Shown piece after piece: positions 2,108 through 37,318 of a stretch of DNA of 64,000 bases. The notes under the pieces were generated by a model. The model had not been told where the DNA came from. It did not search any database and saw only the letters and a list, made by a program, of their open reading frames with translations. A program made the position numbers and the translations under genes. The stretch is taken from assembly GCA_020632515.1 (NCBI GenBank), contig JACKFK010000005.1:157327-221326 (forward strand), in the 5' to 3' direction. Numbering within the stretch: position 1 is the stretch's first letter; each line of letters begins with the position of its first letter. This DNA comes from Candidatus Omnitrophota bacterium. GTDB taxonomy: Bacteria > Omnitrophota > Gorgyraeia > Zapsychrales > Zapsychraceae.

Positions 2108-3163
2108 ATGAGCATGGGAATGACGATTGGTTTAACATACGATTTAAAAGATTCTTGGAATTTTCGGCAAAATGATCCACAAGACGCAAATGCGGAATTT
2201 GATAAGCCGCAGACAGTTGATCGTGTTGTCGAAGCTTTAGAATCTGGCGGTCATCGTGTTTTGCGTATAGGTAATGTAGAAAAGTTATTGGAACAAATTG
2301 CGGAACTGGATGTGGATTTGGTATTTAACATGTGCGAAGGCGTTAGTGGTCGGAATCGGGAAATGCAAGTGCCGATGTTGTTGGAAATGTATAATATTCC
2401 CTTTGTCGGCGCGGACGCGCTGACTTTGGGTATTTCTTTAGATAAGGTAGCTGCTAAAAAAATGTTTATGGCAGATAATATTTCTACAGCAAAATTTTTT
2501 GTAGTTGATGAAGATAAGAATCTTTCCGAAAAAGAATTAATCCCGTTATTAAATAAGAATAATATGCGTTTTCCTTTGATGGTAAAAACGCGCCATGAAG
2601 GTTCTTCAAAAGGGATTAATGAAAATTCACGTGTTACGGATATTGCGGCTCTTGTGCGGCAAGTGCGCTGGATTCATAACAAATATCATCAGTCTGCATT
2701 AGTTGAAGAGTTTATTCATGGATCAGAATTTACCGTGGCTGTTTTAGGCAATAACAATTGTCAGGCGATGCCGGTTGTCCAATATTCGATGAATGGAAAG
2801 CTGGATTTAGGAGAAGAGTTTTATACAAATCAACGGTTGATAGATATGTCGGTTCAATATATATGTCCGGCGAAAATTTCTGAAGAATTAACTTTGAAAT
2901 TACAGGATTTAGCGGTTAAGGCTTACAAAAGTATTGAATGTCGTGATTTGGGACGGGTAGATTTCAGGGTTGACGAAAATGGACAGCCCTATGTCTTGGA
3001 AATAAATCCGCTGCCAAGTTTAGAAAAAGGTGATGTTTTCGATCTTTTTCCTAAAGCATTAGGGACAAATTTTGCTGAGAAATTAAATGAGATTATAAAT
3101 TTTGCTGCAATTCGTTATGGACTGACGGAAACAGCAACTATAAGGACAGCATTACGAAACTAA
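2108..3163 (+). CDS. D-alanine--D-alanine ligase family ATP-grasp ligase, substrate unknown
   Basis: 351 aa. Ddl-like 'CEGVSGRNREMQVPMLLEMYNIPFVGADALTLGISLDKVAAKKMF'. ATP-grasp C-terminal core 'GRVDFRVDENGQPYVLEINPLPSL'. The N-terminus is atypical for a housekeeping Ddl. Confidence 0.7.
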   Translation: MSMGMTIGLTYDLKDSWNFRQNDPQDANAEFDKPQTVDRVVEALESGGHRVLRIGNVEKLLEQIAELDVDLVFNMCEGVSGRNREMQVPMLLEMYNIPFVGADALTLGISLDKVAAKKMFMADNISTAKFFVVDEDKNLSEKELIPLLNKNNMRFPLMVKTRHEGSSKGINENSRVTDIAALVRQVRWIHNKYHQSALVEEFIHGSEFTVAVLGNNNCQAMPVVQYSMNGKLDLGEEFYTNQRLIDMSVQYICPAKISEELTLKLQDLAVKAYKSIECRDLGRVDFRVDENGQPYVLEINPLPSLEKGDVFDLFPKALGTNFAEKLNEIINFAAIRYGLTETATIRTALRN

Positions 3164-3164
3164 T

Positions 3165-4340
3165 ATGAATCCGATAGAATCTATTCAAAACGAGATTTCA
3201 TCTTCTTTTCCAACGGTTAAACTTTCACCGAAGGAAAATCGTGTTATTAATTTTTTTAAAGACGCGACTCCGTTAGATTGGGAAGATTGGCGCTGGCAAA
3301 TTCGTAATAGGGTTCGTTCTTTAGATGTGTTGAACAAATTTATCAATCTAACAAAACATGAAATTAAAGGGATTCAAGGGTGTGGCAATAAATTGACAAT
3401 GTCAATCCCTCCGTATTTTGCCAGTTTAATGGATCCTGAAGATCCAAAATGTCCGATTCGTTTACAAAGTGTTCCGCAAGTTCATGAATTGGAGGTTTCT
3501 GAAAATGAAATGAGAGATCCTTGCGGGGAAGATAAAAATTCACCTGTGCATGGATTGGTACATCGTTACCCTGATCGGGTTTTGTTTCTTGTTAATGAGA
3601 TGTGCGCCATGTATTGTCGGTATTGCACACGTTCTCGCATGGTTGGTGATGGGCAAAGAACATTGAGTACAGAAACTTATAATGCAGCATTTGACTACAT
3701 CCGTTCTAATAAAAAAATACGGGATGTTTTAATTTCCGGCGGAGATCCATTAACAATGAGCGATCGCATGCTTGAACATATTATCAAGACATTAAAAGAA
3801 ATCCCCCATGTCGAATTTGTTCGAATAGGAACACGAATACCTGTTACTTTGCCTCAACGGATTACTTTTGATTTGGTGAATATGCTCAAGAAGTATAGTC
3901 CGATTTGGATGAGCATTCATTTCAATCATCCTAAAGAAATCACGAAACGCGTTAAATTTGCGTGTGATCTTTTGGCGGATAGCGGAATCCCGATGGGGAG
4001 TCAGACTGTTTTGCTTAAGGGAATTAATGATAAACCTGCTGTTATGAAAAAATTAATGCATGAATTGCTCAAGATAAGGGTTCGCCCTTATTATATTTAT
4101 CAATGCGATCCGATTCTTGGATCTAAACATTTCCGCACACCAGTCTCGGTAGGTCTTAATATTATTGAAAAATTAAGAGGACATACAACAGGTTACGCTG
4201 TTCCGACTTATGTCATTGACGGACCAGGCGGTGGTGGGAAGATTCCTCTTTCCTCAAATTATATCCTTGCCCAGGACAATGGCGTTTACACTCTGCGCAA
4301 TTATGCGGGGAAACAATTTGTCTATCACGACCCTCAATAA
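3165..4340 (+). CDS. kamA: KamA-family radical SAM aminomutase (lysine 2,3-aminomutase-like)
   Basis: 391 aa. 'WEDWRWQIRNR' N-terminal signature. Radical SAM 'CAMYCRYCTRS'. 'YIYQCD' and 'VIDGPGGGGK' are conserved. The start lies 1 nt after the upstream stop codon. Confidence 0.85.
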   Translation: MNPIESIQNEISSSFPTVKLSPKENRVINFFKDATPLDWEDWRWQIRNRVRSLDVLNKFINLTKHEIKGIQGCGNKLTMSIPPYFASLMDPEDPKCPIRLQSVPQVHELEVSENEMRDPCGEDKNSPVHGLVHRYPDRVLFLVNEMCAMYCRYCTRSRMVGDGQRTLSTETYNAAFDYIRSNKKIRDVLISGGDPLTMSDRMLEHIIKTLKEIPHVEFVRIGTRIPVTLPQRITFDLVNMLKKYSPIWMSIHFNHPKEITKRVKFACDLLADSGIPMGSQTVLLKGINDKPAVMKKLMHELLKIRVRPYYIYQCDPILGSKHFRTPVSVGLNIIEKLRGHTTGYAVPTYVIDGPGGGGKIPLSSNYILAQDNGVYTLRNYAGKQFVYHDPQ

Positions 4341-4466: not shown

Positions 4467-4769
4467 ATGAGAAAAATTGAAGCTATTGTTCGAAAAGAAA
4501 AATTCGAAGATATTATAAAAGTTTTGGAAAAGTCTGGTATTGGAGGAGTTACGGTAACTGAAGCTAAGGGGTTTGGGCACCATCGGAATGGCTTAAAGGA
4601 GAAATATAAGATTGAAATTTATGTTGATGAATTTCAAGTCGATAAGGTGATTGACATGATTCGATCTGTGGCAAAAACCGGAACCACAGGGGATGGAAAA
4701 ATTGCTATTTTACAGTTGGAAAATCTTATTAAGATTCGTACAGGAGAGGAAGGCGCCAGCGCGATTTGA
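4467..4769 (+). CDS. P-II (GlnB/GlnK) family signal protein with a shortened T-loop
   Basis: 100 aa. 'MRKIEAIVR...VTVTEAKGFG', B-loop 'TGTTGDGKIA', C-terminal 'IRTGEEGASAI'. The segment between 'GFG' and the beta3 strand 'KIEIYV' is much shorter than in canonical 112-aa GlnB. Confidence 0.8.
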   Translation: MRKIEAIVRKEKFEDIIKVLEKSGIGGVTVTEAKGFGHHRNGLKEKYKIEIYVDEFQVDKVIDMIRSVAKTGTTGDGKIAILQLENLIKIRTGEEGASAI

Positions 4770-4860: not shown

Positions 4861-5019
4861 ATGATTGAAGTTAAAGTTAATGATTCAAATGGCTTTGAAA
4901 AGGCAATGAAGATTTTTAAAAAAGCCTGCCAAAAAGATGGTTTTATGATGGAACTGAAGGATCGTCAATATTACTGCAAACCATCTGAGAAGAAAAGACA
5001 TAAGAATAAAAAGAGGTAA
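4861..5019 (+). CDS. rpsU: 30S ribosomal protein S21 (absent from the ORF track because it is under 60 aa)
   Basis: My translation: MIEVKVNDSNGFEKAMKIFKKACQKDGFMMELKDRQYYCKPSEKKRHKNKKR. It matches the S21 pattern (xEVxV..N...ALRxFKRxCxKxG...ELxxRxxYEKPSxxRK). RBS AAGGTGG lies upstream. Confidence 0.85.
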   Translation: MIEVKVNDSNGFEKAMKIFKKACQKDGFMMELKDRQYYCKPSEKKRHKNKKR

Positions 5020-5686: not shown

Positions 5687-6835
5687 ATGTTGTTACGAAC
5701 TTTCAGACTTAATGGTTTAAATAAAATTTATCAAGAAAATGTGAGAAAAATGCTTCGGGATCCCAACCGTAAGCCTCTTTTGCTTCAGATGCGAGAATTG
5801 ATATGGCTGGCGAAGACACAAAAATATTGGCCGCATAATTATTTTCGTTATAAAGCGTATACTAAAGGATATGATGTCCGGGAGTTGCAGTATTATCTGC
5901 CGGGGCGGCTTATGAATTTTATCCGTGAGGATTGTGTGAATGATCAAAGTTGCAAAGATTTTTGTAATGATAAGGTTCAATTTAAAAGAATCTTGATGGA
6001 AAACGCCCTGCCAACAGCAGAACCTATTGGCTACTTTTCTAGAGGGCAAGGATATTTTCGGTTAGATGATTCGCCGATTGATGAAGCCGAATTTTTGAAT
6101 AATCTAGACGGGTATTATGTAATTAAACCTTCGCGAGATACTTCTTGTGGCCGAGGTATTCTATTTTTTTCTACCGATCAGCAGTCAGCAATAGTTAATT
6201 TTGGAGATAACCACACAATACTTCTCAATGAATTGCGGGGATATTTAAGCCAGCATCATAATAAATGCCTACTTATTGAGAGACAGCTTAAACAGCATCC
6301 GCAAATGGCGGTTATTTATTCACATGCAGTTAATACGATACGGATAGATACTCTTCGTTGTCTGGATGGAAATATTATAAATTTAAATGCTTATATTCGC
6401 TTAGGTCGTGGCGATCGTAAGGTAGATAATATTACAGCGGCGGAAGGTGTGGGAGGGATATCTGTTCCCATTGATCATATTTCTGGTCGTTTAAAAGGTA
6501 TAGGGAAAGATAGATATCTTAATGAATTCATACAGCATCCTGATACTGGAGTTGCATTTGAAGGTATTGAAATTCCTTTTTGGAATGAATTAAAAGAACT
6601 CGTATGTCAAGCTCATCGAGTCTTTCCCAAAGTTAATTCAATTGGGTGGGATGTAGGGATTACACCACAAGGGCCTGTATTAATAGAAGGCAATCATGAT
6701 TATGATATGTATGGGATACAGGTTATGCATGGAGGGTATTTAAAAAATAAAGTATTTGTCGAACAGATGCTGGGATATATTCGGCAATCACCATTTCGTA
6801 ACAAATATGAGCGATATTTTCTCATTAAAAATTAA
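5687..6835 (+). CDS. ATP-grasp protein resembling the sugar-transfer-associated ATP-grasp family (ATPgrasp_ST-like)
   Basis: 382 aa. 'YYVIKPSRDTSCGRGILFF', 'DNITAAEGVGGISVPIDHISGRL' and 'IGWDVGITPQGPVLIEGN' match the pattern I recall for this family. Not verified by an HMM search. Confidence 0.5.
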   Translation: MLLRTFRLNGLNKIYQENVRKMLRDPNRKPLLLQMRELIWLAKTQKYWPHNYFRYKAYTKGYDVRELQYYLPGRLMNFIREDCVNDQSCKDFCNDKVQFKRILMENALPTAEPIGYFSRGQGYFRLDDSPIDEAEFLNNLDGYYVIKPSRDTSCGRGILFFSTDQQSAIVNFGDNHTILLNELRGYLSQHHNKCLLIERQLKQHPQMAVIYSHAVNTIRIDTLRCLDGNIINLNAYIRLGRGDRKVDNITAAEGVGGISVPIDHISGRLKGIGKDRYLNEFIQHPDTGVAFEGIEIPFWNELKELVCQAHRVFPKVNSIGWDVGITPQGPVLIEGNHDYDMYGIQVMHGGYLKNKVFVEQMLGYIRQSPFRNKYERYFLIKN

Positions 6836-12527: not shown

Positions 12528-12854
12528 ATGTCTAATAAAAGAAAATATAAAAGGGTAGAGTGTTTAGTCCCCGTGGAAAGTAAAATCGGGGGAGGCCTTG
12601 ATTTGACGCAAACCATTGATATCAGTAAAAAAGGTTTGGGTTTTGTATCGGCTAAGAAAATGCCCATTAATAAAAAGATTCCTATTGAAATTGATCTTTC
12701 CGAGGATAGTTCTATCCTTGTTATTGGTAAAGTTAAGTGGTCAAAAGCGATTAAAGGTACAGAGCTTTTTAGAATAGGGTTGAATTTTGAAACAGTTGAA
12801 AAAGGATGCCAAACCCGCCTTAATCAGTTTTTCAAGCAAGCTGAGGGCTCTTGA
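12528..12854 (+). CDS. Stand-alone PilZ domain protein
   Basis: 108 aa. c-di-GMP binding motifs are intact: RxxxR as 'RKYKR' and DxSxxG as 'DISKKG'. Confidence 0.8.
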   Translation: MSNKRKYKRVECLVPVESKIGGGLDLTQTIDISKKGLGFVSAKKMPINKKIPIEIDLSEDSSILVIGKVKWSKAIKGTELFRIGLNFETVEKGCQTRLNQFFKQAEGS

Positions 12855-13177
12855 GTATGGATGAACGGCGTTTTTTTGAGCGTTTTTCTTCTAGATATCC
12901 AGCCAGAATTAAAGATTCCAGAGAAGAATTTGGAGCAAGATTTCATTTAAGAGAGGCCAGTGCCGAAGGCGTAAGAATACGTTCGACAGAAAAGGTCTTT
13001 AATAATGATAGTCTTACTTTAGAGGTTAAATTGCCGGATGGACATGATCCAATGATTTTAAAAGGGCATGTTGTTTGGACCAAGAACCAGGATTCTAAGG
13101 TTTGGGATATTGGATTAAAATTTCATAAAATACGGTTAATGCATCTTTCAAGATTGTATAGTTTGGCTGTCAAATAG
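12851..13177 (+). CDS. Stand-alone PilZ domain protein, second copy with a degenerate motif
   Basis: 108 aa. 'RFFER' gives RxxxR. The second motif reads 'EASAEG', with E in place of D/N. The TTG start at 12851 overlaps the upstream stop. An alternative ATG lies at 12857. Confidence 0.65.
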   Translation: MSMDERRFFERFSSRYPARIKDSREEFGARFHLREASAEGVRIRSTEKVFNNDSLTLEVKLPDGHDPMILKGHVVWTKNQDSKVWDIGLKFHKIRLMHLSRLYSLAVK

Positions 13178-13305: not shown

Positions 13306-16020
13306 ATGAACGATAATAATGATTTATATAAATATTTGGATCAACAAATAGCGTTTAGATCAGAAAAAGCAGCTGATTCCCGTCTTTTATATTTTCCTCT
13401 GTGTGGTATTGATTCAGCACATTTGAAGTCTTCTATTACGCCTTTTTTAAGCGGGGATATAAAAATTGATAAAGAACGATTTTTAACCAAACCTTCCTCT
13501 CGAGAAGATTTGCGGCAAAATCTTCGCAATATTTTCTTTAACATTAAGAATCAAGGAATAATTTCTTTAGCAGATGATAATGATGATGATGTTTTTCATG
13601 TAGAGGCCGGGCCGTTGTGGCATAAGGTTATTCGGACATTTTCATTATCAGGTCTTGAAATTGAAGCTCTTAATTTTGTGCCTGTAACCGGAGAAAATGT
13701 TGAGCTGATGAGGGTTCAGTGTCTTAATATTTCGGATAAAACCATTTTTTTTACGCCTACGAGCTCGATTCCTATTTTCGGTCGAGCATTAGTCAATAAA
13801 CATGATCATGAACATGTGACAGCATTGTTGCATCGTATTAAACAATTAAAGCAAGGGGTTTTGGTTGAGCCGGTGATGTCATTTAACGAAGAAGGGCATT
13901 TGCCTAATAAAACAGTTTATTATGTATTTGGATTTCAAGGGATGGGGGAAAATCCTGTAGGCACATTTCCAACAGTTGAAAGTTTTGTTTCTGATGGAGG
14001 AACGTATGCTAAACCGCAGGCGGTTTTTCAAAATAAACAACCAGGATTTTTGTCGGATAGTGCTTTACAAGGGAAAGAAGCTATGGGGGCGTTACGGTTT
14101 AAAGAATATAAATTAAATCCAGGCGACACCGTTGATTATTATTTCATGTTGGGGATTGAAGATGATAACGCCAAAGCTATGAAGGTTTACCAACGGTTTG
14201 ATTCTCCTGAAAAATTTCAGGCAGCTTTTGATAAAAATAAGGAGTACTGGCAAGCCAAATCAAGCGCAATTACATTTTCAACACGCGATGACAATTATAA
14301 CGCGTGGCTGCAGTGGGTTTCTTTGCAGCCTGTTTTACGGCGAATTTATGGATGTTCATTCTTACCGGACCATGATTATGGTAAAGGCGGTAAAGGCTGG
14401 CGCGATATCTGGCAGGATTTGTTGTCATTGATTTTGATTGAACCCGAGAATGTTCGGGGTTCTTTAATTAATAATTTTGCTGGAGTGCGAATAGATGGCT
14501 CTAACGCGACAATTATCGGTTCTGCCCCAGGGGAGTTTGTCGCTGACCGCAACGCGATTGCCCGGGTATGGATGGATCATGGTGTTTGGCCGTTAATGAC
14601 AGTGTTATTGTATATTCATCAGACCGGAGATTTTCAGTTATTATTAGAGGAGAATGTTTATTTTAAGGATCATCAGCTGTCACGCAATTTTGAAAAGGAT
14701 ATTGCCTGGTCTCCGCAGTATGGTCAACAGTTGAAAGATAAAGAAGGGCAAGTTTATAAAGGAAGCATTTTAGAGCATATTTTAGTTCAACATCTTGTTC
14801 AGTTTTTTAATGTGGGGGAACATAATATTATTCGTTTAGAAAACGCGGACTGGAATGATGGTTATGATATGGCCTTTGAGCGGGGAGAAAGTGTAGCGTT
14901 TATGAGTTTTTACGGTGGAAATTTAATTGCCCTGGCGGAATGTTTAGAAGCTTTAGAGGAAAAAATGAAATTGTCGACACTTGAGATTGCTGAAGAATTG
15001 TTGCTTTTGTTGGATGTGGCATCTAATCAGCCTGTGGATTATAGCAACGCTGTTGATAAAAGAAGTCGATTATTTGAGAATTATCTTAAGAAAGTTCAAC
15101 CCGTTGTCTCGGGTAAAAAATGTGGAATCAAAATAGTTGATTTAGTTAAAGATCTTCGACAAAAAGGAGAATGGATCTTTTCATATATTAAAACAAATGA
15201 AAAGATAAACGTCCAGGATCAGGGACAGGAATATACTTGGTATAATGGATATTACGACAATCAAGGGAAAAAGGTTGAAGGTGAAGATCGCGGGCATATC
15301 CGGATGATTTTAGCAAGCAGTGTTTTTCCAATAATGAGCGGGTTGGCTAACCTGGATGAAGTTCGTCAGATTATTAAGGCGGTTGACGAATATCTACAAG
15401 ATGAACAGTTAGGGGGGTATCGTTTAAATACGAATTTTCAGTTAAATCATTATTTGGATATGGGGAGAGCTTTTGGTTTTGCTTATGGAACGAAGGAAAA
15501 CGGAGCCTTTTTTAGTCATATGGCGGTGATGTATGCGTACGCGTTATATAAACGCGGATTTGTTCGGGAAGGTTCTAAGGTGATTCGGTCAATTTATAAC
15601 ATGTGCGTGGATACTGCAAAAAGTAAAATTTATCCAGGCATACCTGAGTATATCGATTCTGAGGGCCGGGGGATGTATCACTATCTTACAGGTTCTGCGA
15701 GCTGGTTAGTTTTAACAGAATTAACACAGAAATTTGGGGTGTCTGGTCAGTACGGAAATTTATTATTAGCGCCCAAATTAGTTAAAGAAGATTTTAATGA
15801 GCAAGGTGAAGTTAAAATAGAATGCTATTTTGCGCAAAAGAGATTAACAGTAATTTACATTAACAGTTCTTTATTAGACTTTGGTGAATATAAGATCAAA
15901 GATGTTTTTTTTAATGAACAAACTGTTGCATTTGAGCCCTATTCTAATTACGCAGTATTAATAAAGAAAGAAATTCTTCAAAGCGCTCCACGGGAATCAG
16001 TAATAAAAGTTCATTTTTAA
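13306..16020 (+). CDS. GH94-like glycoside phosphorylase superfamily protein (cellobiose/beta-glucan phosphorylase-like)
   Basis: 904 aa. 'ENADWNDGYDM' resembles the catalytic 'ADWND' motif of GH94 phosphorylases. The size fits a multidomain (alpha/alpha)6 enzyme. Family assignment among GH94, GH149 and GH161 is not resolvable by eye. Confidence 0.55.
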   Translation: MNDNNDLYKYLDQQIAFRSEKAADSRLLYFPLCGIDSAHLKSSITPFLSGDIKIDKERFLTKPSSREDLRQNLRNIFFNIKNQGIISLADDNDDDVFHVEAGPLWHKVIRTFSLSGLEIEALNFVPVTGENVELMRVQCLNISDKTIFFTPTSSIPIFGRALVNKHDHEHVTALLHRIKQLKQGVLVEPVMSFNEEGHLPNKTVYYVFGFQGMGENPVGTFPTVESFVSDGGTYAKPQAVFQNKQPGFLSDSALQGKEAMGALRFKEYKLNPGDTVDYYFMLGIEDDNAKAMKVYQRFDSPEKFQAAFDKNKEYWQAKSSAITFSTRDDNYNAWLQWVSLQPVLRRIYGCSFLPDHDYGKGGKGWRDIWQDLLSLILIEPENVRGSLINNFAGVRIDGSNATIIGSAPGEFVADRNAIARVWMDHGVWPLMTVLLYIHQTGDFQLLLEENVYFKDHQLSRNFEKDIAWSPQYGQQLKDKEGQVYKGSILEHILVQHLVQFFNVGEHNIIRLENADWNDGYDMAFERGESVAFMSFYGGNLIALAECLEALEEKMKLSTLEIAEELLLLLDVASNQPVDYSNAVDKRSRLFENYLKKVQPVVSGKKCGIKIVDLVKDLRQKGEWIFSYIKTNEKINVQDQGQEYTWYNGYYDNQGKKVEGEDRGHIRMILASSVFPIMSGLANLDEVRQIIKAVDEYLQDEQLGGYRLNTNFQLNHYLDMGRAFGFAYGTKENGAFFSHMAVMYAYALYKRGFVREGSKVIRSIYNMCVDTAKSKIYPGIPEYIDSEGRGMYHYLTGSASWLVLTELTQKFGVSGQYGNLLLAPKLVKEDFNEQGEVKIECYFAQKRLTVIYINSSLLDFGEYKIKDVFFNEQTVAFEPYSNYAVLIKKEILQSAPRESVIKVHF

Positions 16021-16046
16021 CTCTAAAAATTCTTCAGTAGTTAATT

Positions 16047-16075
16047 TTGACAAGGTTGGGACTGCGTGGTATACT
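16047..16075 (+). promoter_or_regulatory. Sigma70-like promoter candidate (TTGACA-17-TATACT)
   Basis: TTGACA at 16047-16052 and TATACT at 16070-16075. It lies upstream of the ABC importer genes. Confidence 0.5.
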
Positions 16076-16149
16076 CATATTTTATTTCTTGCATATATCG
16101 TTGAAATGATTAAGGTTTTGTTTTAGTTTAAAACTTCTTAAAATATTTC

Positions 16150-17478
16150 ATGAAAATAATGGAGAATCCTTTAATGAAAAAAATCATTTCGTTTTGTCTG
16201 GTTTTAACATCATTTATGGTTAGCTTTGGTTTTGTGAGTTGTTCGAGACCTAAAAAAGATCCAAATACCATTACGTTGTGGCATTGGATGACAGATCGAG
16301 ATAAAACTTTTAAGGAACTTGCCGCACAATATAAAGAGCTAACTGGAATCGATGTTCAAATCGAATTGTTTGCTCCTTCTGATTCTTATACCCAAAAAGT
16401 CGTTGCTTCGGCTCAGGCCAAAATACTTCCTGATATATACGGTGTTTTAGATACAAAAGAAACCTTCGCAAATTTTATTAAATATGGATATATTGCTGAT
16501 TTAACTCAGGAATTTAAGAAAAATGATGGGGAATGGGAAAAAGAACTTTTTACAAAAGCTCTTGATGCCAACCGGTTTGAACCAGGTAATGGATATGATG
16601 TTCCCCCCGGAATTTATGGTGTACCTTTAGATGTTACAAATATTCAAATGCTTTATAATAAAAAGTTATTGAAAAAAGCCGGATATGATGCCCCACCGGA
16701 GACTTATGACGAATTTTTGGAAATGGCTAAAGCTTTAAAAAGGATCGGAGTTCCAGGTTTGGTTTCTGGTTGGGGGGAACTGTGGCTGGCAGATTGCTTT
16801 GCTTCTAATTATGCATTTAATATTATGGGAGAAGAGAAGGTTATGGCCACATATCGGGGAGAAGTTCCTTATACCGATAAAGATTGGGTTAGGGTTTTTC
16901 AGATTTTTAAGGACTTAGTTGACGGAGATGTACTTGTTAAAGGTGTTGTCACTAAACCAAATAAAGAAGCTGAGCAAGATTTTGCCTTAGAACGAGCAGC
17001 CTTTGCTTTTAATGGTTCTTGGAGTGTAAATGTTTATAAAGAAATTAATCCTGATTTAGAATATGGTGTTATTCTTCCTCCGGCTATCAGTAATAAATAT
17101 CCGATGCGGATTTGGGGGGGCGCCGGATCGAATTTTGTGATAAGCAATACTTCTCCTAATAAAGAGAAGGCTATTGCGTTTGTTCGATGGCTAACATCAC
17201 AAAAACAACAGGCCTATTTGGCGGAACAAACCAGAAATTTACCATCGAATAAAAAGGCGCTTTCTTCAATATCAAAAGTTTTAGAAGAGTTTGCTCAGTC
17301 CATGGATAATACAACGCATCCAACGATTTGGCCAGTTAATGAAAGTCCGGTTGTTACAGAAAAATATACTAAAGGCTTGCAGTCGATTATTATCGGCAAG
17401 AAATCTCCTGAAGAAGTTGCTAAAGAAATCCAAGAAGTTAAAGAAAAAGAGATGGAAAAAGAGCAGCGCCGTAAATAA
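16150..17478 (+). CDS. Sugar ABC transporter substrate-binding lipoprotein (CUT1-type)
   Basis: 442 aa. Signal peptide with lipobox 'GFVSCS'. The protein is W/Y-rich and similar in size to solute-binding protein family 1. An alternative start at 16174 (MKKIISF) is likely. Confidence 0.8.
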   Translation: MKIMENPLMKKIISFCLVLTSFMVSFGFVSCSRPKKDPNTITLWHWMTDRDKTFKELAAQYKELTGIDVQIELFAPSDSYTQKVVASAQAKILPDIYGVLDTKETFANFIKYGYIADLTQEFKKNDGEWEKELFTKALDANRFEPGNGYDVPPGIYGVPLDVTNIQMLYNKKLLKKAGYDAPPETYDEFLEMAKALKRIGVPGLVSGWGELWLADCFASNYAFNIMGEEKVMATYRGEVPYTDKDWVRVFQIFKDLVDGDVLVKGVVTKPNKEAEQDFALERAAFAFNGSWSVNVYKEINPDLEYGVILPPAISNKYPMRIWGGAGSNFVISNTSPNKEKAIAFVRWLTSQKQQAYLAEQTRNLPSNKKALSSISKVLEEFAQSMDNTTHPTIWPVNESPVVTEKYTKGLQSIIIGKKSPEEVAKEIQEVKEKEMEKEQRRK

Positions 17479-17515
17479 TTTTTCTTGCAGAAAAGGAATT
17501 TGATTCGCAATCATC

Positions 17516-18442
17516 ATGTCAACGAACGCCGCAAAAACATTTAACTTTTCAAAATTACGTTATACTTTAGAAAGCTTTGCTTTTATCTTTCCGGCAGTTT
17601 CAATTTTTTCAATTTTTTATATTTTCCCATTTTTTTATATATTTAAACTTTCACTTTATGAGTGGAATGGGTTAAGCCCTTTTATGTCCTTTATTGGCCT
17701 GGAGAATTTTATCGAACTGATGAGGGATAAGATTTGGTGGACATCAATGTGGCACGCTTGTTATATCACATTGATTGCGCTTACATTTCAGAATATGCTA
17801 GCCTTCGGATTAGCATTGGCTTGTGATAGAGAAATTCGTTTAAAGAAATTCTACCGGGTAGTATTTTTTCTTCCACCAGTTTTATCAGAGGTTGTTGTCG
17901 GGTTTATTTGGCGATGGGTTTTAAATGCCGGAGAGCAAAATGGGGAGCCTTATGGATTATTAAATTTCGCGTTAATGAAATCAGGGTTAAATCATTTGAT
18001 CACTGATTGGTTGTCGAATCCAGATACCGCATTGACTTGTATTGCTATTGTACATAGTTGGAAAGGGTTTGGTTGGGGATTTATCATGTTGCTGGCAGGG
18101 TTGCAGACAATTGATAAGCAGCTTTATGAGGCGGCCAAGGTGGATGGCGCCAATAGTTGGGAAACATTTAAAAATGTCACAGTTCCAATGATGATTCCAG
18201 TGATTTTGGTGGTTATGATTTTAACGGTTTTAGGATCTATGCAGGTTTTTGTTTTGATTTTATCTATGGTGGGACAAGGGTTGGAATATGAGGCGGAAGT
18301 ACCTGTTACTCGGATATTGGCGGCGATGACTTCATCAAAGCAATATGGTTATGCTTGTGCAATGGGGGTAACTTTTGGCGCGATTCTGATTTTTATTTCG
18401 TTTTCATTTAAGAAAATATCTGAGCGCATGAAACAGGTTTAA
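17516..18442 (+). CDS. Sugar ABC transporter permease (MalF/UgpA-like)
   Basis: 308 aa, 6 TM. EAA loop 'YEAAKVDGANSWETFKNVTVP'. Confidence 0.85.
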   Translation: MSTNAAKTFNFSKLRYTLESFAFIFPAVSIFSIFYIFPFFYIFKLSLYEWNGLSPFMSFIGLENFIELMRDKIWWTSMWHACYITLIALTFQNMLAFGLALACDREIRLKKFYRVVFFLPPVLSEVVVGFIWRWVLNAGEQNGEPYGLLNFALMKSGLNHLITDWLSNPDTALTCIAIVHSWKGFGWGFIMLLAGLQTIDKQLYEAAKVDGANSWETFKNVTVPMMIPVILVVMILTVLGSMQVFVLILSMVGQGLEYEAEVPVTRILAAMTSSKQYGYACAMGVTFGAILIFISFSFKKISERMKQV

Positions 18443-18469
18443 ATTATTTGAGAAAGGTTTAAGAGAAAA

Positions 18470-19330
18470 ATGGCAAAGGCAAAAATTCCGATAAATCGAT
18501 ATCAAGTTTTTCAGTCCACAAAATATCTGTTTATTCACATATTTCTTATGTCGGTTGCTGCAACGTGCATTTTTCCGTTATTTTGGATGGTACGCTCAGC
18601 GTTGATGACAAAAGAAACGATATTTATCGACAAATCATTGTTTCCCAGCGCGCTGCAATGGGGGAATTTTGTTAAAGCCTGGATCGGCGGAAATTTTGGT
18701 ACATATTTTTTGAATAGCCTTTTTTATACTTTCAGCGTTGTTGTCGGAATTGTCATTATTAGTTCGTTGGCCGCGTACGCGTTTTCCCGGCTTCGTTTTC
18801 CCGGTAAAGATTTCTTCTTTTATATGTTTGTGGCCGCAATGATGATTCCCCTTCCAGGAAGTTTCGTTCCTTTGGTTGTTTTGATGAATAAAATTGGGCT
18901 TGTTAATACGAGATTAGGATATATACTTTGTATGATTAACGTCGGGCTTTCTATGAGTATATTATTGTTGAAAACTTTTTTCGACAAAATGCCATCCGAT
19001 TTAGAAGACGCTGCCCGAATTGACGGCTGTGGGAAGATTCGAATTTGGTGGAATGTCGCGCTTCCATTGGCAAGACCGGCGATTGCGGTTGTTGTTATTT
19101 TTAATTCATTGAATGTATGGAATGAATTTATTTTGGCAAATTTATTATTAACCGACGATTCTTTAATGACTTTGCAGACAGGTTTATTTAAATTTCAAGG
19201 GCCGAATTTAGCAGATTACCCTGTTTTAATGGCAGGATTGACGATAGCGGCCATTCCGATAATTATTATTTATCTTTTTATGCAAAAACATATCATTAAG
19301 GGACTATCTTCAGGAGCTGTTGTTGGATAA
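18470..19330 (+). CDS. Sugar ABC transporter permease (MalG/UgpE-like)
   Basis: 286 aa. EAA loop 'EDAARIDGCGKIRIWWNVALP'. Confidence 0.85.
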   Translation: MAKAKIPINRYQVFQSTKYLFIHIFLMSVAATCIFPLFWMVRSALMTKETIFIDKSLFPSALQWGNFVKAWIGGNFGTYFLNSLFYTFSVVVGIVIISSLAAYAFSRLRFPGKDFFFYMFVAAMMIPLPGSFVPLVVLMNKIGLVNTRLGYILCMINVGLSMSILLLKTFFDKMPSDLEDAARIDGCGKIRIWWNVALPLARPAIAVVVIFNSLNVWNEFILANLLLTDDSLMTLQTGLFKFQGPNLADYPVLMAGLTIAAIPIIIIYLFMQKHIIKGLSSGAVVG

Positions 19331-21774
19331 TGACAAAATATTATCAAACATTTTTTTTATTTGTTGTCAGTAGTTTTATCATATGCGGATTTTTTTGTGA
19401 TAAGGGGTTTACGCAAGAAGATGTGTTAACTAACGCTATTATAGAGAATGATCAAGAGAATGAAGTTGGTTCTTTAGAAAATGAAATAGAAAACGATGCT
19501 GAAGAAATGAATGGCGAAGCTGAGAAAAAGGAATTGGAAACAGAACCCCAAGTAAAGCCTCTTTCATCAAAAGAACTCGTTACTAAGTCATGGGAAGCTT
19601 CCAGTAAAAATGATTTAAAGGGTTTGGAAAGTCTTGTGAATCAATGTTTGGAACGGTTTGGTGATGAAGCGAAGACGTTAGGCGAGAAGCTAAGCGCATT
19701 TCCGGCGCGGGGTGAAGAAACACAATATCAAGCATTAAATGATGTAGCAACATGTTTGTTTATTAAGGCGGAAGCGTTAATGAATACAGGAAATGTTGCA
19801 GAAGCGATTACGCAGTTTCAAACTATTATTGAACAATATCCTTATGCCCAAGCCTGGGATCCGCGAGGGTGGTATTGGTCGGTTGCAGAAAAAAGTCAGG
19901 ATAGTATTGATGTCTTAACAGGAAAGACAGAAGAAGAGTTGCAAAAGAATGAAGAAAAGGTTGTTCGTACAAAGCCTTATTTGCATACAAAAGGAAAAAA
20001 GAGAATCGTTGATTATACAAAGTATGGTGAATTTCAAAATGTTGGTACGGAAAATTATCATTATAAAATTAATGACGCGAAAGCATTAGCTGATGCTGTC
20101 GGGGAAGGTATTTATCCTAACACTGGCGCGATTTATAATAATCCCCGGTATAAAGAAGTTAAGGCGGAAGGTCGGCTGGAAGGCAATCATTGGGATTATG
20201 TCAACAGCGATGACCTTGAGGCTGCGTATTTTAAATGGGTGACGGCACCAGAACCTTGGGGGGTTCGTTTATTTTATATTGGGATTATTTTTGAAAAAGC
20301 TAAAATGTATTATGAGGCGTTGAAAGCATACCATTCATTGGTTGTTCATTATCCGAAAACCGTTGCTTGGACGTATTGGCAAACACCCTGGTATCCGGGT
20401 CAAGCGGCTATTGCAAAGATTCGACATATAATACGATCGCATCCAGAATTGAATTTAGATACAAAATGGATGAGTATTGAGGTTAAGAACGGATATGATA
20501 ATGATGGTGGGAATGATTTGTTTGTTACATACCCTGGAAAAATTATCGAAGTTACATTTTTTGATCGGTTAAGATCAAAGTTTGATTTTAGTGACAAAGT
20601 TGACTTAGGAAAAGTAATTAATAAAAGAGGAAACGGTAAAGTAAGATTGGAACAATATGAAAATAAGCATTGGCAACTTTTGGTTGATAATAAGCCGTTT
20701 GTTATTAAAGGAATTACATACGCTCCAACTAAAATCGGACAAAGTCCGGACAAAGGAACTTTAGCAAATTGGATGGAAGAAGATGTTAATGAAAATGGAC
20801 GAATTGACGGTCCTTATGATTCATGGGTTGATTCAAATAAGAATAATATTCAGGACGCCAATGAGCCTGTTGTCGGAGATTTTCAGTTGATGAAAGAAAT
20901 GGGAGCAAATACGTTAAGAATCTATCATCAGCCTGATAAACCTAATAAAGAATTGCTGCGAAAAATGTATAAAGAGTATGGTTTTTATGTAGTGATGGGA
21001 GATTTTCTTGGAAAGTACGCGATTGGATCTGGAGCTTCTTGGAGTGAAGGGACAGATTATGAAAATCCTGAGCACAAAAAGAATATGTTAGAATCTGTCA
21101 AAAAAATGGTGATGGAGTTTAAGGATGAACCTTATATATTGTTGTGGGTTTTAGGAAATGAAAATAATTATGGGGTAGCGTCTAACGCAGACAAAAAACC
21201 GGAAGCGTATTTTAAATTTGTAGATGAAGTGGCTCAATGGATAAAATCAGTTGATCCTAATCATCCCGTCGCGGTTAATAACGGAGACACATTGTTTCTT
21301 GATATTTTTGCGCAAAACAGTCCTAATGTTGATATATTTACTGCAAATGTTTATCGTGGAGATTACGGATTTGGATCTTTTTGGGAGCAGGTTATGGCCG
21401 CGTCCGGAAAGGCCGCGTTTATTACGGAATATGGGTGTCCAGCTTACGCGCGGCATCTTAGTTTAGATGAAGCTGAAGATGCTCAAGCGGATTATCATCG
21501 CGGAAATTGGTTGGATATTGAAGAAAATGTGGCGGGTAATTCACGAGGTGTTGGTAATGCATTAGGCGGAATTGTTTTTGAATGGTTAGATGAGTGGTGG
21601 AAAAATTATGAACCATATTTGCATGATCGCAAATCAGATGCGATTGGTCCGTTTCCCGGAGGATATTATTTTGAGGAGTGGTTTGGTGTTGTTGGTCAAG
21701 GAAATGGTCAGAATAGTCCCTTCCTAAGACAGCCGCGTAAAAGTTATTACCTCTATAAAGATCTTTGGAATTAA
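19330..21774 (+). CDS. Exported fusion protein: W-rich TPR-like module plus a clan GH-A-like TIM-barrel glycoside hydrolase domain
   Basis: 814 aa. N-terminal hydrophobic anchor. Module 'YQALNDVATCLFIKAEAL...YPYAQAWDPRGWYWSVAE'. The C-terminal half has 'ANTLRIYHQ', 'WVLGNENNYG' (candidate acid/base NE) and 'AFITEYGCPAY' (candidate nucleophile E). The start overlaps the upstream stop by 1 nt. Confidence 0.55.
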   Translation: MTKYYQTFFLFVVSSFIICGFFCDKGFTQEDVLTNAIIENDQENEVGSLENEIENDAEEMNGEAEKKELETEPQVKPLSSKELVTKSWEASSKNDLKGLESLVNQCLERFGDEAKTLGEKLSAFPARGEETQYQALNDVATCLFIKAEALMNTGNVAEAITQFQTIIEQYPYAQAWDPRGWYWSVAEKSQDSIDVLTGKTEEELQKNEEKVVRTKPYLHTKGKKRIVDYTKYGEFQNVGTENYHYKINDAKALADAVGEGIYPNTGAIYNNPRYKEVKAEGRLEGNHWDYVNSDDLEAAYFKWVTAPEPWGVRLFYIGIIFEKAKMYYEALKAYHSLVVHYPKTVAWTYWQTPWYPGQAAIAKIRHIIRSHPELNLDTKWMSIEVKNGYDNDGGNDLFVTYPGKIIEVTFFDRLRSKFDFSDKVDLGKVINKRGNGKVRLEQYENKHWQLLVDNKPFVIKGITYAPTKIGQSPDKGTLANWMEEDVNENGRIDGPYDSWVDSNKNNIQDANEPVVGDFQLMKEMGANTLRIYHQPDKPNKELLRKMYKEYGFYVVMGDFLGKYAIGSGASWSEGTDYENPEHKKNMLESVKKMVMEFKDEPYILLWVLGNENNYGVASNADKKPEAYFKFVDEVAQWIKSVDPNHPVAVNNGDTLFLDIFAQNSPNVDIFTANVYRGDYGFGSFWEQVMAASGKAAFITEYGCPAYARHLSLDEAEDAQADYHRGNWLDIEENVAGNSRGVGNALGGIVFEWLDEWWKNYEPYLHDRKSDAIGPFPGGYYFEEWFGVVGQGNGQNSPFLRQPRKSYYLYKDLWN

Positions 21775-22076
21775 ACTCGGTAGATCTAATCAAAAGTAAT
21801 AACACATTTAAAAAAATAAGGTGATTAAGGGTTTTAAGGAATTTAACGAATAGATATTATTTTGGGAATAAAAACGAATTTAAAGACGGAATTATTTGGA
21901 AATAGGCGAAAAAACTTTTTTGAGATATAACCTATTTATTATCATATAGTTACGTTTTAGTAAAATTTGTCACCTATGAGGAAATGGTGTATACTTATTA
22001 ATATCTATTCCAATATAAATAAAACACAATTTAAATAATTTAAAAAGAAAAGGTGAAGTAGGAGAAAGGAGAAGCA

Positions 22077-22934
22077 ATGAAGAGGGTAGTTTTAGCATTA
22101 ACAATTTTAATTTCAGGTTTGGGGGTAACGTATCCGTCTGCCGTCGCTGCGTACAATTTTGGAGATTTTCGTTCTGAAACGTTGACGTCGAAGGCATGGC
22201 AATCTTTAGCAGAGGGGGATATTGAAGGTGTTTTAGCGTACACGAACAAATGTTTAGAGTTATATGCTGAACAAGCTAAAGGAATGCAGAAAACTTTGAA
22301 TAATTATCCAGAAGGATCAAATGACGAGGTTTTCGCTTATTGGGCGCTTAATGATGTGGCGACAAGTTTATTTATCCAAGGTGAAGCTTATCGTAAAGCA
22401 AACATGATGGATGAAGCGAAAGAAGCATATCAAAGAGTAGTTAATGAATTTACTTATGGACAAGCTTGGGATACAAAGGGATGGTTTTGGAAACCTGCTG
22501 ATGCGTCTAAAGAAAAATTAGAAATGATTAAAACTGGTTCCAATGTAGATTTCGGAGATTATTCTTCTTCTTTTATGACAACTCAAGCATGGCAAGCTCT
22601 TAACGGAGAAAATGTTGAAGAAGTTTTGCCTTACGTAAATAAAGTTCAAGAGTTATACGCAAAAAAAGCGAAAGAAATGCAAGAATCATTAACGGAATAT
22701 CCTTGGGAATCAAAAGAAAAGATTTTTTCCTATTGGGCGCTTAATGATGTAGGAACTTCATTATTTATCGAAGGTGAAGCCTATAAAAAAGCTGGTAAGA
22801 AAAAAGAAGCCAAAAAGGCGTATAAAACTTTAGTTGATCAATATTATTACGCACAATGCTGGGATCCTAATGGATGGTTTTGGAAACCTGCTGAAGCAGC
22901 ACAACAAGCGTTAGAAGAATTAGAAAGTATGTAA
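22077..22934 (+). CDS. Secreted protein made of two tandem copies of the W-rich TPR-like module
   Basis: 285 aa. Signal peptide ending 'SAVA-AY'. Repeat 1 (aa 27-157) and repeat 2 (aa 158-285) both contain 'YWALNDV.TSLFI.GEAY.KA' and 'Y.Q.WD..GWFWKPA'. Confidence 0.75.
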   Translation: MKRVVLALTILISGLGVTYPSAVAAYNFGDFRSETLTSKAWQSLAEGDIEGVLAYTNKCLELYAEQAKGMQKTLNNYPEGSNDEVFAYWALNDVATSLFIQGEAYRKANMMDEAKEAYQRVVNEFTYGQAWDTKGWFWKPADASKEKLEMIKTGSNVDFGDYSSSFMTTQAWQALNGENVEEVLPYVNKVQELYAKKAKEMQESLTEYPWESKEKIFSYWALNDVGTSLFIEGEAYKKAGKKKEAKKAYKTLVDQYYYAQCWDPNGWFWKPAEAAQQALEELESM

Positions 22935-22947
22935 TTTGTTTTTAAGA

Positions 22948-22996
22948 AATTCCCTGCTCTTTATTTTGAAAATAAAAAGCAGGGAATTCTTTTTTT
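22948..22996 (+). terminator. Rho-independent terminator
   Basis: AATTCCCTGCT (22948-22958) pairs with AGCAGGGAATT (22978-22988), followed by CTTTTTTT. Confidence 0.8.
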
Positions 22997-23059
22997 CCTT
23001 CCCAAATAAATTTATCCAATATATAATGCAAAGAAATCTAAGCAGCTTGGAGGTCAATT

Positions 23060-23719
23060 ATGCTTATCAAAAAATCCTTTCCAATAATCATTTGTATTTT
23101 TTCAGTATTTTTGAGTGGATGTAATAATGTATCTTCAGAAAAAATAGTCGAATCCCCGGATGAAAATGCAACGCAAATAAGTGAAGTGAAAGAAAATCCT
23201 TTTAAGGCATTTTATATTTATAAGGATAAAGGGGGACGGGAAAATCATTTTAATCCCTCTGGTTTTATGGGTAGTGTAGGATGTATTAAATACAATGATC
23301 GTTGGACAGATGGTTGCCAAGACGGTAAGACTTGTATCCGTATAGATTTTGATATTCAATGCGCTCGTGAAGATCAACAATGGGCAGGTATTTATTGGCT
23401 AAACCCGCCCAATAATTGGGGTGATCGTAAAGGCGGATATAATTTAGCTGGCGCTCAGAAATTGACGTTTTGGGCTCGTGGGGAAGTCGGTGGAGAGATG
23501 ATACAGGAATTTACGATTGGCGGAATTAAAGGAGATTATCCAGATACGGATAAAGTTGTCATTGGCCCGGTAATATTAACCGAAGACTGGCGGGAGTATA
23601 CTATTGATTTGCGAGGAAAAGATTTATCTTATATAAGCGGCGGGTTTTCCTGGTCTACTGATGTTGATGTGAATCCGGAAAGTTGCGCGTTTTATCTTGA
23701 TGAAATAAGATTTGAATAA
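23060..23719 (+). CDS. Lipoprotein, possible carbohydrate-binding (CBM-like beta-sandwich) protein
   Basis: 219 aa. Lipobox 'FLSGC'. The aromatic-rich C-terminal region 'WAGIYWLNPPNNWGD...LTFWARGE...WREYTIDL...FYLDEIRFE' resembles CBM-type modules. The function is inferred from locus context. Confidence 0.4.
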   Translation: MLIKKSFPIIICIFSVFLSGCNNVSSEKIVESPDENATQISEVKENPFKAFYIYKDKGGRENHFNPSGFMGSVGCIKYNDRWTDGCQDGKTCIRIDFDIQCAREDQQWAGIYWLNPPNNWGDRKGGYNLAGAQKLTFWARGEVGGEMIQEFTIGGIKGDYPDTDKVVIGPVILTEDWREYTIDLRGKDLSYISGGFSWSTDVDVNPESCAFYLDEIRFE

Positions 23720-23744
23720 CATCCAGCAGAATTATTTTGTTAGG

Positions 23745-23794
23745 AAAAGGCTAAATTCGATTAGAGAAAATGAATTCGGATTTAGCCTTTTTTA
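23745..23794 (+). terminator. Rho-independent terminator
   Basis: AAAAGGCTAAAT (23745-23756) pairs with ATTTAGCCTTTT (23780-23791), and a T-run follows. Confidence 0.65.
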
Positions 23795-24128
23795 TGCACG
23801 ATAAATGCGAGCCAAGACGCAATTATTTGAAAATTTATTGAGAAAAAAAAATGAAATATCCTTGTATTAAAATTAATAGTTTGTTATATTCATAATGTTG
23901 TAAAAGCCCAAGTATTTACGAAAATATTGCTGCCGCTTATTTGTTAATTCATTGCGTTTACACCGTCGGGACCATCTATATATAATTAGTAAATGTAGAA
24001 CATGATATTAATTTTAAAGGTTTTGGTGCGCAATGGATGATTTAGACTTTTTAAAAAACTATAATCTTCATTGTAAATCATTAACAAAAAAATTATTAAG
24101 ACTAAGTAACAAGGCAGCAGGAGTATAA

Positions 24129-25457: not shown

Positions 25458-25514
25458 ATCCCGCCTTCAATTCTGCATGTTAAATTAGAACGTGAATGAT
25501 CGGTATAAATAACC

Positions 25515-36923: not shown

Positions 36924-36967
36924 CGGCGATTAAAGTTTTATATTGCTCAATGAGTGAGGAGGTGTTA

Positions 36968-37318
36968 ATGGCGCAAATTGATGTTCAGGGTACAAGAGTG
37001 GAAATTCTGTCATTCAATCAAAAAGAAGATTTTATTTGTCTGACAGATATTGCGCGGTATAAGGATTCTGCGCGGACAGATTATATTATCCAGAACTGGT
37101 TGAGAAATCGCAATACAATTGAATTTCTGGGTATTTGGGAGCAGTTAAACAATCAAGATTTTAAACCCATCGAATTCGATGGGTTTAAAAAACAAGCGGG
37201 CTTGAATAGTTTTGTCTTGACGGCCAAACAATGGATAGAAAAGACGGGCGCGGTCGGAGCATTTGAGAAAATTGAACGCAATCGCGATTGCGCAAATGAA
37301 GTTACTAATTATCAATAA
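36968..37318 (+). CDS. KilA-N domain protein, apparently truncated at the C-terminus
   Basis: 116 aa from the ATG that follows RBS GAGGAGGTG. 'ICLTDIARYK...IIQNWLRNRNTIEFLGIWEQLNN.DFKPIEFDGFKKQAGLNSFVLTAKQWIEKTGAVG' matches the KilA-N family. Family members I recall continue for more than 100 further aa. Confidence 0.65.
   Translation: MAQIDVQGTRVEILSFNQKEDFICLTDIARYKDSARTDYIIQNWLRNRNTIEFLGIWEQLNNQDFKPIEFDGFKKQAGLNSFVLTAKQWIEKTGAVGAFEKIERNRDCANEVTNYQ

Follow-up and report, generated by a model that had tools for sequence, protein, structure and literature searches.

A ligase and aminomutase gene pair in Omnitrophota

We analyzed a stretch of 64,000 nucleotides (the window) from an uncultured Candidatus Omnitrophota bacterium (GCA_020632515.1, contig JACKFK010000005.1, positions 157,327 to 221,326), in which a gene for an ATP-grasp ligase with the fold of D-alanine-D-alanine ligase (Ddl) is followed by kamA, a gene for a lysine 2,3-aminomutase (LAM). 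The ligase was found to be 100% identical to the NCBI protein P0001 (349 aa, Candidatus Omnitrophica bacterium), which carries only the label 'ATP-grasp domain-containing protein', and its homologues are called 'D-alanine-D-alanine ligase' by the JGI pipelines. The pair and the spacer before it comprise the following features, where ORF stands for open reading frame.

1967-1984, + strand: hairpin with a T-run, terminator-like (pattern match only), in the spacer after mgtE
2057-2083, + strand: hairpin GGAACC...GGTTCC, read by eye (pattern match only), in the spacer after mgtE
2108-3163, + strand: Ddl-fold ATP-grasp ligase of the 'g1' subfamily; 351-aa ORF, 349 aa from the ATG at 2114
3161-3167, + strand: stop/start junction TAA-T-ATG, with a 1-nt spacer
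3165-4340, + strand: kamA, 391 aa, a short-form lysine 2,3-aminomutase (KamA/AblA type)

A first-pass annotation, made from the letters of this stretch, had described a tight operon in which the ligase stops at 3163 and KamA starts at 3165. Both the coordinates and the 1-nt spacing were verified by reading the junction directly (...AAC TAA T ATG AAT..., with the stop at 3161-3163 and the kamA ATG at 3165). This spacing is consistent with co-transcription and translational coupling, and the same junction in relatives varies between an overlap of 4 nt and a gap of 80 nt. Because its homologues and the NCBI model P0001 begin with MG(K/M)xIG, the ligase probably starts at the ATG at 2114 and not at 2108. 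Judging from their pattern, the two hairpins in the spacer probably end the mgtE transcript, which would make ligase-kamA a separate transcription unit.

We propose that this operon serves one pathway, in which KamA makes beta-lysine and the ligase builds a beta-lysine amide with a solute-like product, and we give this proposal a slightly better than even chance as a whole. The functional coupling of ligase and KamA is in itself very likely, for the reasons set out below.

The aminomutase retains the lysine-binding residues

The window KamA was aligned without gaps to the LAM of Clostridium subterminale (2A5H), residues 25-390 matching residues 3-368, with approximately 60% identity over 366 residues (E = 1e-144). 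The radical S-adenosylmethionine (SAM) motif CxxxCxxC is present as C147/C151/C154, the equivalents of the Fe-S cysteines C125/C129/C132 of LAM at an offset of 22. It was noted that R156 corresponds to the carboxylate-binding Arg134 and K359 to Lys337, the pyridoxal phosphate (PLP) lysine. The two residues that bind the epsilon-amine of lysine are also kept, D315 (in YQCD) being the equivalent of Asp293 and D352 (in VIDGPGGGGK) that of Asp330. The C-terminal Cys-rich (Zn) tail is absent, and the protein stops at the equivalent of LAM residue ~369.

Because every functional group of lysine has its binding residue (the PLP lysine for the alpha-amine, Arg134 for the carboxylate, Asp293 and Asp330 for the epsilon-amine), free L-lysine is the predicted substrate, and the mutase should therefore act before, and not after, ligation. 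The set C125/C129/C132/R134/D293/D330/K337 was complete in 79 of the 79 module KamAs (from the related loci described below) that were covered at all seven positions. Only the KamA half of a fusion protein deviated, with Gln at the Asp293 position. The four statements that the first-pass annotation had made about KamA, namely the SAM motif, the two acidic positions, the missing tail and a likely cationic substrate (lysine giving beta-lysine), all stand, and the last of these is now backed by the conservation among the fully covered module KamAs.

Scores against curated family models point in the same direction. KamA passed the family model TIGR00238 (353.5 bits against a cut-off of 199.2), and it did not reach the AblA equivalog TIGR03820 (515.4 against 525.4 bits), of which it covered model positions 5-362 of 417. 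We attribute this 10-bit shortfall to the last ~55 model positions, which hold the missing Cys-rich tail, and not to the core of the protein. The models for glutamate (466 against 650 bits), arginine (429.7 against 600 bits), and EpmB-type enzymes (240.8 against 369.3 bits) all scored far below their cut-offs. The two Asp residues that the first-pass annotation describes as replaced in glutamate 2,3-aminomutases are both retained here.

The ligase has the Ddl fold but lies outside canonical Ddl

Evidence from three sources agreed in placing the ligase in the Ddl family of ATP-grasp enzymes, as had been annotated. The Pfam family Dala_Dala_lig_C matched at E = 6e-36, and the best PDB sequence matches were Ddl or Van ligases in 37 of 37 cases, with 99.6 bits for the best solved Ddl. 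An AlphaFold2 model (predicted local distance difference test, pLDDT, of 89) gave Ddl structures as its top Foldseek matches, at TM values of about 0.75-0.88 and 20-24% identity. The residues of E. coli DdlB that serve ATP, Mg, and the transition state (K97/K144/E180/E187/R255/D257/E270/N272) correspond to K113/K160/E200/E207/R283/D285/E298/N300, which are invariant in the ligase family. Both Glu15 of the first amino-acid site (here E30, in the motif NAEFD) and Ser150 were also kept. Asp32, Glu77, Arg82, Arg84, Glu85, Arg287, and Arg336 are further invariant positions. Since the catalytic residues are retained, the ligase is predicted to be active with acyl-phosphate chemistry.

The ligase missed the NCBIfam cut-offs for Ddl (TIGR01205, 161.9 against 245.65 bits; NF002378, 171.2 against 243 bits), and a scan of the curated NCBIfam models found none that claims it. 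The Ddl signature HGxxGEDG is replaced by EGVSGRNRE in the window ligase and by EGxxGRNRE as the family form, and the exchanges of His63 to Glu and Glu68 to Arg were invariant in 121 g1 sequences. The N-terminal substrate loop reads GLTYDLK...NAEFD as opposed to the GGxSxEREVS of Ddl, and both the omega-loop region around Lys215/Tyr216 and the Ser281/Leu282 loop are remodelled relative to Ddl. We dropped a substrate call that had been drawn from the Ser281/Leu282 loop, where Asp is conserved in Omnitrophota but most Gemmatimonad g1 sequences carry Ser, in an alignment that is itself uncertain. Among 1.84 billion cluster representatives searched (50% identity clusters), at least 150 scored 178-367 bits to the ligase, compared with the 99.6 bits of the best solved Ddl. 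Taken with the missed cut-offs and the replaced motif, this places the ligase outside housekeeping Ddl, a point on which the first-pass annotation had made its proposal depend. The protein would thus be an active ligase that is not a Ddl.

The window yielded no canonical ddl, either by Pfam on most ORFs of at least 100 aa or by a six-frame search for HGxxGE[DN]G, which was empty. A tblastn search with E. coli DdlB (the query having been checked against our own alignment), combined with the motif search over the window and 128 fetched loci, returned only members of the new family and no HGxxGEDG. Apart from murJ, no mur/dcw cluster was present in the window.

The pairing recurs across phyla and gene orders

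Conservation of the neighbourhood had been named as the first check on the proposed pair, and it was found at several levels. The pair is kept in three other Omnitrophota genomes (L038, L039, and L041), which were reached via exact-protein look-ups and in which the ligase is 56-64% identical. Among the Gemmatimonadaceae, 33 of 35 loci carried the order g1-g2-GNAT-KamA, where g1 is 33-38% identical to the window ligase and g2 is a more distant Ddl-like ligase; the contigs of the other two end before the KamA position. One Elusimicrobiota locus (L044) has KamA 3.9 kb downstream of the ligase on one strand. A profile-guided scan of metagenomes then gave 80 loci with 33-57% ligase identity, and KamA was found in 53 of them. 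When only the loci with at least 2.5 kb on both flanks of the ligase were counted, 25 of 29 had KamA no more than about 4 kb away. It was noted that a genome scan with a single protein had given only Gemmatimonadaceae and two Bdellovibrionota-type loci, the peptide patterns being too specific.

The gene order in these metagenome loci varied, with at least five arrangements that included g1-KamA, g1-ligase-KamA, KamA-g1-g2-GNAT, and g1-g2-GNAT-KamA. Further arrangements had genes for a PAS kinase, a sigma-54 activator, and a receiver between g1 and a KamA-g2 pair, or had KamA-g1 with g2 on the opposite strand. Because the pairing survives rearrangement, which is a classical sign of a functional link, we take the two genes to be linked in function. 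The two proteins were also found as a single ligase::KamA fusion of 695 aa (P0184, and P0307 from a second independent assembly). In the locus of this fusion (L043 7171-9258, contig CAYUBU010000283.1), the upstream genes encode a GntC/VioD-like PLP enzyme of the capreomycidine-synthase type and a RaSEA-like radical-SAM protein, and the whole looks like a small natural-product cluster. Given the Gln at Asp293, the KamA half of the fusion probably handles another amino acid.

For the purposes of comparison, a KamA + g1 module was taken as g1 and a D293/D330-type KamA that share a strand and lie no more than a few kb apart, and the window pair belongs to it. The pairing is not a product of chance, and it is the evidence across phyla that counts.

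Family shape and fuller modules

We examined the relationships among the ligases in a neighbor-joining tree that was rooted on a single outgroup and carried no support values. The g2 clade stood apart from the g1 superclade, and the window ligase grouped with the first ligase of the Omnitrophota-type loci. The second ligase of g1-ligase-KamA loci formed a separate branch of the g1 superclade and is not a g2 orthologue. Many loci were characterized by two or three ligase paralogues in tandem. The window represents the minimal form of the module, with one ligase and KamA, and no GNAT lies near the pair.

The small gene between g2 and KamA in Gemmatimonadaceae was identified as a GNAT acetyltransferase by frame analysis of third-position GC content (GC3) and translation. 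The module GNATs gave no match to the AblB model and weak RimI-like matches. Two ORFs of L003 (8070-8582 and 9745-10311) were rejected as accessory genes, since they lie in the wrong frame and have no family matches, and an ORF downstream of the Gemmatimonad module was set aside as unrelated and on the opposite strand. An all-against-all comparison of ORFs from 30 loci found no conserved partner besides the ligases, KamA, and the GNAT. The four-gene module was also encountered in L032, a metagenome-assembled genome (MAG) assigned to Gemmatimonas aurantiaca, whose type strain is in culture.

Several loci carried additional genes beside the module. In L121 (10499-12239), a split gene of two ORFs directly follows KamA-g1-g2-GNAT and encodes a second GNAT fused to a histone-deacetylase/acetylpolyamine-amidohydrolase domain, which hints at turnover of an N-acetylated amine. 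In L077 (8997-12263), and also in L078, L080, and L082, genes for a PAS histidine kinase, a sigma-54-dependent response regulator, and a single-domain receiver stand between g1 and KamA-g2. This suggests that expression of the module is controlled by a signal. A different arrangement was seen in L045 (7001-10432) and L125 (579-3769), where two fused or tandem Ddl-like ligase domains are followed by a Peptidase_S58 gene (DmpA/BapA-type aminopeptidase) in surroundings that have no KamA. This branch may constitute a synthesis and degradation pair for a peptide of D- or beta-amino acids.

Proposed pathway and product

In the pathway that we propose, KamA, as a radical-SAM and PLP enzyme, would convert free L-lysine to beta-lysine, as its conserved residues indicate. 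By homology to Ddl, the ATP-grasp ligase would then activate a carboxylate as an acyl phosphate with ATP and couple it to an amine. Beta-lysine would be one or both of the partners in this step; by analogy with the joining of D-Ala to D-Ala, its use in both positions would yield beta-lysyl-beta-lysine. The expected product is a beta-lysine-containing amide of the dipeptide type. Judging from the context in relatives, it may be a soluble small molecule, either similar to a compatible solute or a nitrogen-rich metabolite of the cytoplasm. The fuller modules, which have a second ligase and a GNAT, would yield a longer and N-acetylated amide.

We consider it reasonably probable that the product is a beta-lysine amide, and a role of this product as a solute is put forward tentatively. 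A small molecule is favored because of the GNAT genes, the GNAT-deacetylase gene of L121, and the two-component regulators in relatives, and also because mur/dcw and efp genes are missing from the annotated neighbours of the module, none having been seen among the genes annotated near it in the examined loci. The beta-lysine amide that the first-pass annotation had put forward is therefore supported, and of the options that it listed, the context in relatives favors a small-molecule amide over a modification of the cell wall or of a protein. A role in lysine fermentation was considered and rejected, as no kamDE, kdd, kce, or kal-like genes were found in the window or in the annotated related loci.

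A number of observations weigh against this proposal. The region from nth to purH-folC-mnmE is syntenic within Omnitrophota, so that adjacency within the phylum is weak evidence. The fusion protein sits in a context that resembles natural-product synthesis, with its KamA half changed from Asp293 to Gln. Relatives of the ligase with ~40% identity were found with no KamA within 7 kb (L046, L127, and L128, from a Bacillota MAG, an Elusimicrobiota MAG, and one other genome), and relatives with no nearby KamA are annotated in Bacillota and Pseudomonadota; the wider ligase family is therefore not exclusively tied to beta-lysine. No member of the ligase family has a known product, substrate, or phenotype. 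The window has neither the GNAT nor the second ligase, so the fuller modules may not predict the product here. Finally, the Omnitrophota matches come largely from what we take, by their sample names, to be non-saline groundwater and sediment, in which the need for an osmolyte is not obvious.

Alternative explanations

An intriguing question is whether the ligase instead puts beta-lysine on a macromolecule or a cell-wall precursor, either as a dipeptide of the peptidoglycan stem or on elongation factor P (EF-P), with the ATP-grasp enzyme replacing EpmA. The scaffold is that of a cell-wall enzyme, the organism makes peptidoglycan (MurJ, 42153-43757), and the pair is conserved through the phylum in small genomes, where it stands among the housekeeping genes rpsU, purH, folC, and mnmE. 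Beta-lysine is also the modifier of EF-P in gamma-proteobacteria (PMC2821294). Nevertheless, none of the examined loci had the module in a mur/dcw cluster or beside efp, the KamA is of the LAM/AblA type and not EpmB (241 against 369 bits on the EpmB model), and the GNAT and deacetylase partners are better suited to the metabolism of small amines. To our knowledge, the characterised Ddl-fold enzymes all act on small molecules. We therefore regard this explanation as unlikely, and we judge it quite improbable that beta-lysine is installed on a peptidoglycan stem or an EF-P-type protein instead of entering a free solute. If true, it would amount to a new modification of the cell envelope or of a translation factor in Omnitrophota, Gemmatimonadota, and Elusimicrobiota.

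It is similarly unlikely that the pair forms the core of a specialised-metabolite pathway, for example for an antibiotic-like pseudopeptide with a beta-amino acid. Several antibiotics contain beta-lysine, and Ddl-like and other ATP-grasp ligases occur in natural-product pathways. The fusion gene adjoins genes for a GntC/VioD-like PLP cyclodehydratase and a radical-SAM protein, and the L-amino-acid ligase 3VOT matches the window ligase weakly. However, the module is vertically conserved among core genes in Omnitrophota and Gemmatimonadaceae, where no conserved transporter, resistance, or extra tailoring genes surround it, and the fusion KamA, which differs at D293, may be a diverged offshoot.

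We see only a very slight chance that KamA acts on another substrate, such as ornithine, arginine, or a lysine that the ligase has already joined. The AblA score just under its cut-off and the truncated C-terminal domain would fit such a substrate, as would the Gln at D293 in the fusion variant. The lack of the last ~55 model positions nevertheless accounts for the shortfall, and all of the lysine contacts of 2A5H are kept in an ungapped alignment of ~60% identity over 366 residues. Ligation would also deprive lysine of the free carboxylate or amine to which these residues bind.

Hardly any credence can be given to a housekeeping D-Ala-D-Ala ligase with a meaningless kamA adjacency, since even though Ddl is the closest characterised family, the 64-kb window holds no other ddl, the JGI label reads 'D-alanine-D-alanine ligase', and the region is syntenic within the phylum, the ligase reached 171 of the 243 bits required, every member of the family has another sequence in place of the His63/Glu68 motif, KamA pairs with the ligase in unrelated phyla with varied gene orders and one fusion, many loci have two or three tandem paralogues, and the NCBI name is merely 'ATP-grasp domain-containing protein'.

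Relation to known beta-lysine and ligase systems

The proposed beta-lysine amide pathway shares features with several known systems. Similar to Ddl (EC 6.3.2.4; E. coli DdlB 2DLN and Y. pestis 4ZQI), the window ligase has the three-domain ATP-grasp fold and the catalytic residues, and its chemistry is presumably the same, with an acyl phosphate followed by attack of an amine. It differs from Ddl in its 20-24% identity to these enzymes and in being linked to kamA and not to mur/fts genes.

AblA and AblB make N-epsilon-acetyl-beta-lysine (PMC3543383). The window KamA is of the AblA type and also stands in a cassette of two genes with a putative enzyme for capping beta-lysine as an amide, to which the fuller modules add a GNAT. 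The partner is nonetheless an ATP-grasp ligase rather than an AblB-type GNAT, and KamA has no C-terminal tail. In the synthesis of the dipeptide osmolyte N-acetylglutaminylglutamine amide (NAGGN), Ngg both acetylates and forms the peptide bond (PMC8070244). The KamA-g1-g2-GNAT modules likewise pair an acetyltransferase with the ATP-dependent, non-ribosomal formation of a peptide bond, a likeness of logic. The Ngg/AsnO pathway, however, uses glutamine and lacks an aminomutase, and we saw no AsnO-like amidotransferase here. By this analogy, the KamA-g1-g2-GNAT modules resemble a cross between AblA/AblB and Ngg.

In the EpmA/EpmB system, a KamA-family mutase feeds beta-lysine to an adjacent dedicated ligase for EF-P (PMC2821294). 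Unlike the window ligase, EpmA is a paralogue of class-II aminoacyl-tRNA synthetases (aaRS) and its target is a protein lysine; the window KamA stays below the EpmB model, as given above, and no efp is nearby. The L-amino-acid ligases (BL00235, 3VOT) also work as stand-alone ATP-grasp enzymes and link an amino acid with another small molecule, with a marginal match to the window ligase (3VOT, E = 5e-4). MysD of mycosporine-like amino acid synthesis is another Ddl-like ligase of natural products. We know of no L-amino-acid ligase or Ddl-like natural-product ligase that uses beta-lysine or pairs with KamA.

The established fates of beta-lysine are acetylation, lysylation of EF-P, and incorporation by nonribosomal peptide synthetases. 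The module described here is a beta-lysine cassette in which the tailoring enzyme is neither a GNAT nor an aaRS paralogue but a Ddl-like ligase. A fourth fate would follow from a conserved ATP-grasp partner, and with it an overlooked family of beta-lysine amides. A full-text literature search, with most subscription journals outside its coverage, found no description of a pathway of KamA and an ATP-grasp ligase. As the KamA link spans genomes of Omnitrophota, Gemmatimonadota, and Elusimicrobiota as well as many unclassified metagenome contigs, the module is more than an oddity of a single MAG, and it is probably part of the ordinary physiology of soil and groundwater lineages that are abundant yet poorly studied. 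It allows a function to be assigned to a large set of proteins now labelled 'D-alanine-D-alanine ligase' or 'ATP-grasp domain-containing protein', and the cultured species Gemmatimonas aurantiaca makes it approachable by experiment.

Neighbouring genes and other features of the window

The genes around the pair, together with murJ, are listed below.

38-487: nth
510-1859: mgtE, followed by a 248-bp spacer before the ATP-grasp ligase gene
4467-4769, + strand: P-II-like gene, 100 aa (Pfam P-II, 5e-20), directly 3' of kamA
4861-5019, + strand: rpsU (ribosomal protein S21), a 52-aa ORF called by position and sequence, below the default ORF cut-off of 60 aa
5119-5634: pfpI
5687-6835, + strand: ATPgrasp_ST-type gene (Pfam ATPgrasp_ST, 1.9e-43), between pfpI and purH
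3' of 5687-6835: purH, folC, and mnmE, in that order
42153-43757: murJ, indicating that the organism makes peptidoglycan

The P-II-like gene also follows kamA in L041, L048, L058, and L071, and in L038 it comes after an inserted DUF1570/MazE/PIN block. Its product matches positions 1-102 of the P-II profile and is shorter than the canonical GlnB of ~112 aa. It was noted that this gene is a conserved neighbour only within Omnitrophota and is not part of the module loci in other phyla; it might regulate the pair or simply be syntenic with it. A gene with the Pfam domain Ribosomal_S21 was found at the place equivalent to rpsU in L038 and L041.

The second ATP-grasp gene of this region (5687-6835) is unrelated to the Ddl-like ligase. 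Because pfpI directly adjoins purH in the related Omnitrophota loci (L047, L048, L050, and L094), we regard it as an insertion private to the window genome.

The window as a whole has a GC content of ~37%, and a scan of its full length against Rfam found no RNA family at the gathering thresholds. GC skew was positive in every 2-kb bin across 1-64000 (+0.08 to +0.31), and 50 of the 53 ORFs of at least 100 aa lie on the + strand, a very strong strand bias over 64 kb. Further along the window come three unrelated features. Two PilZ-domain genes stand in tandem (12528-13177), followed by a block that contains genes for a GH94-like protein, an ABC sugar transporter, a TPR/GH2-like protein, and a LacI regulator (13306-26522). 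An ORF with a KilA-N domain lies directly after leuS (36920-37318).

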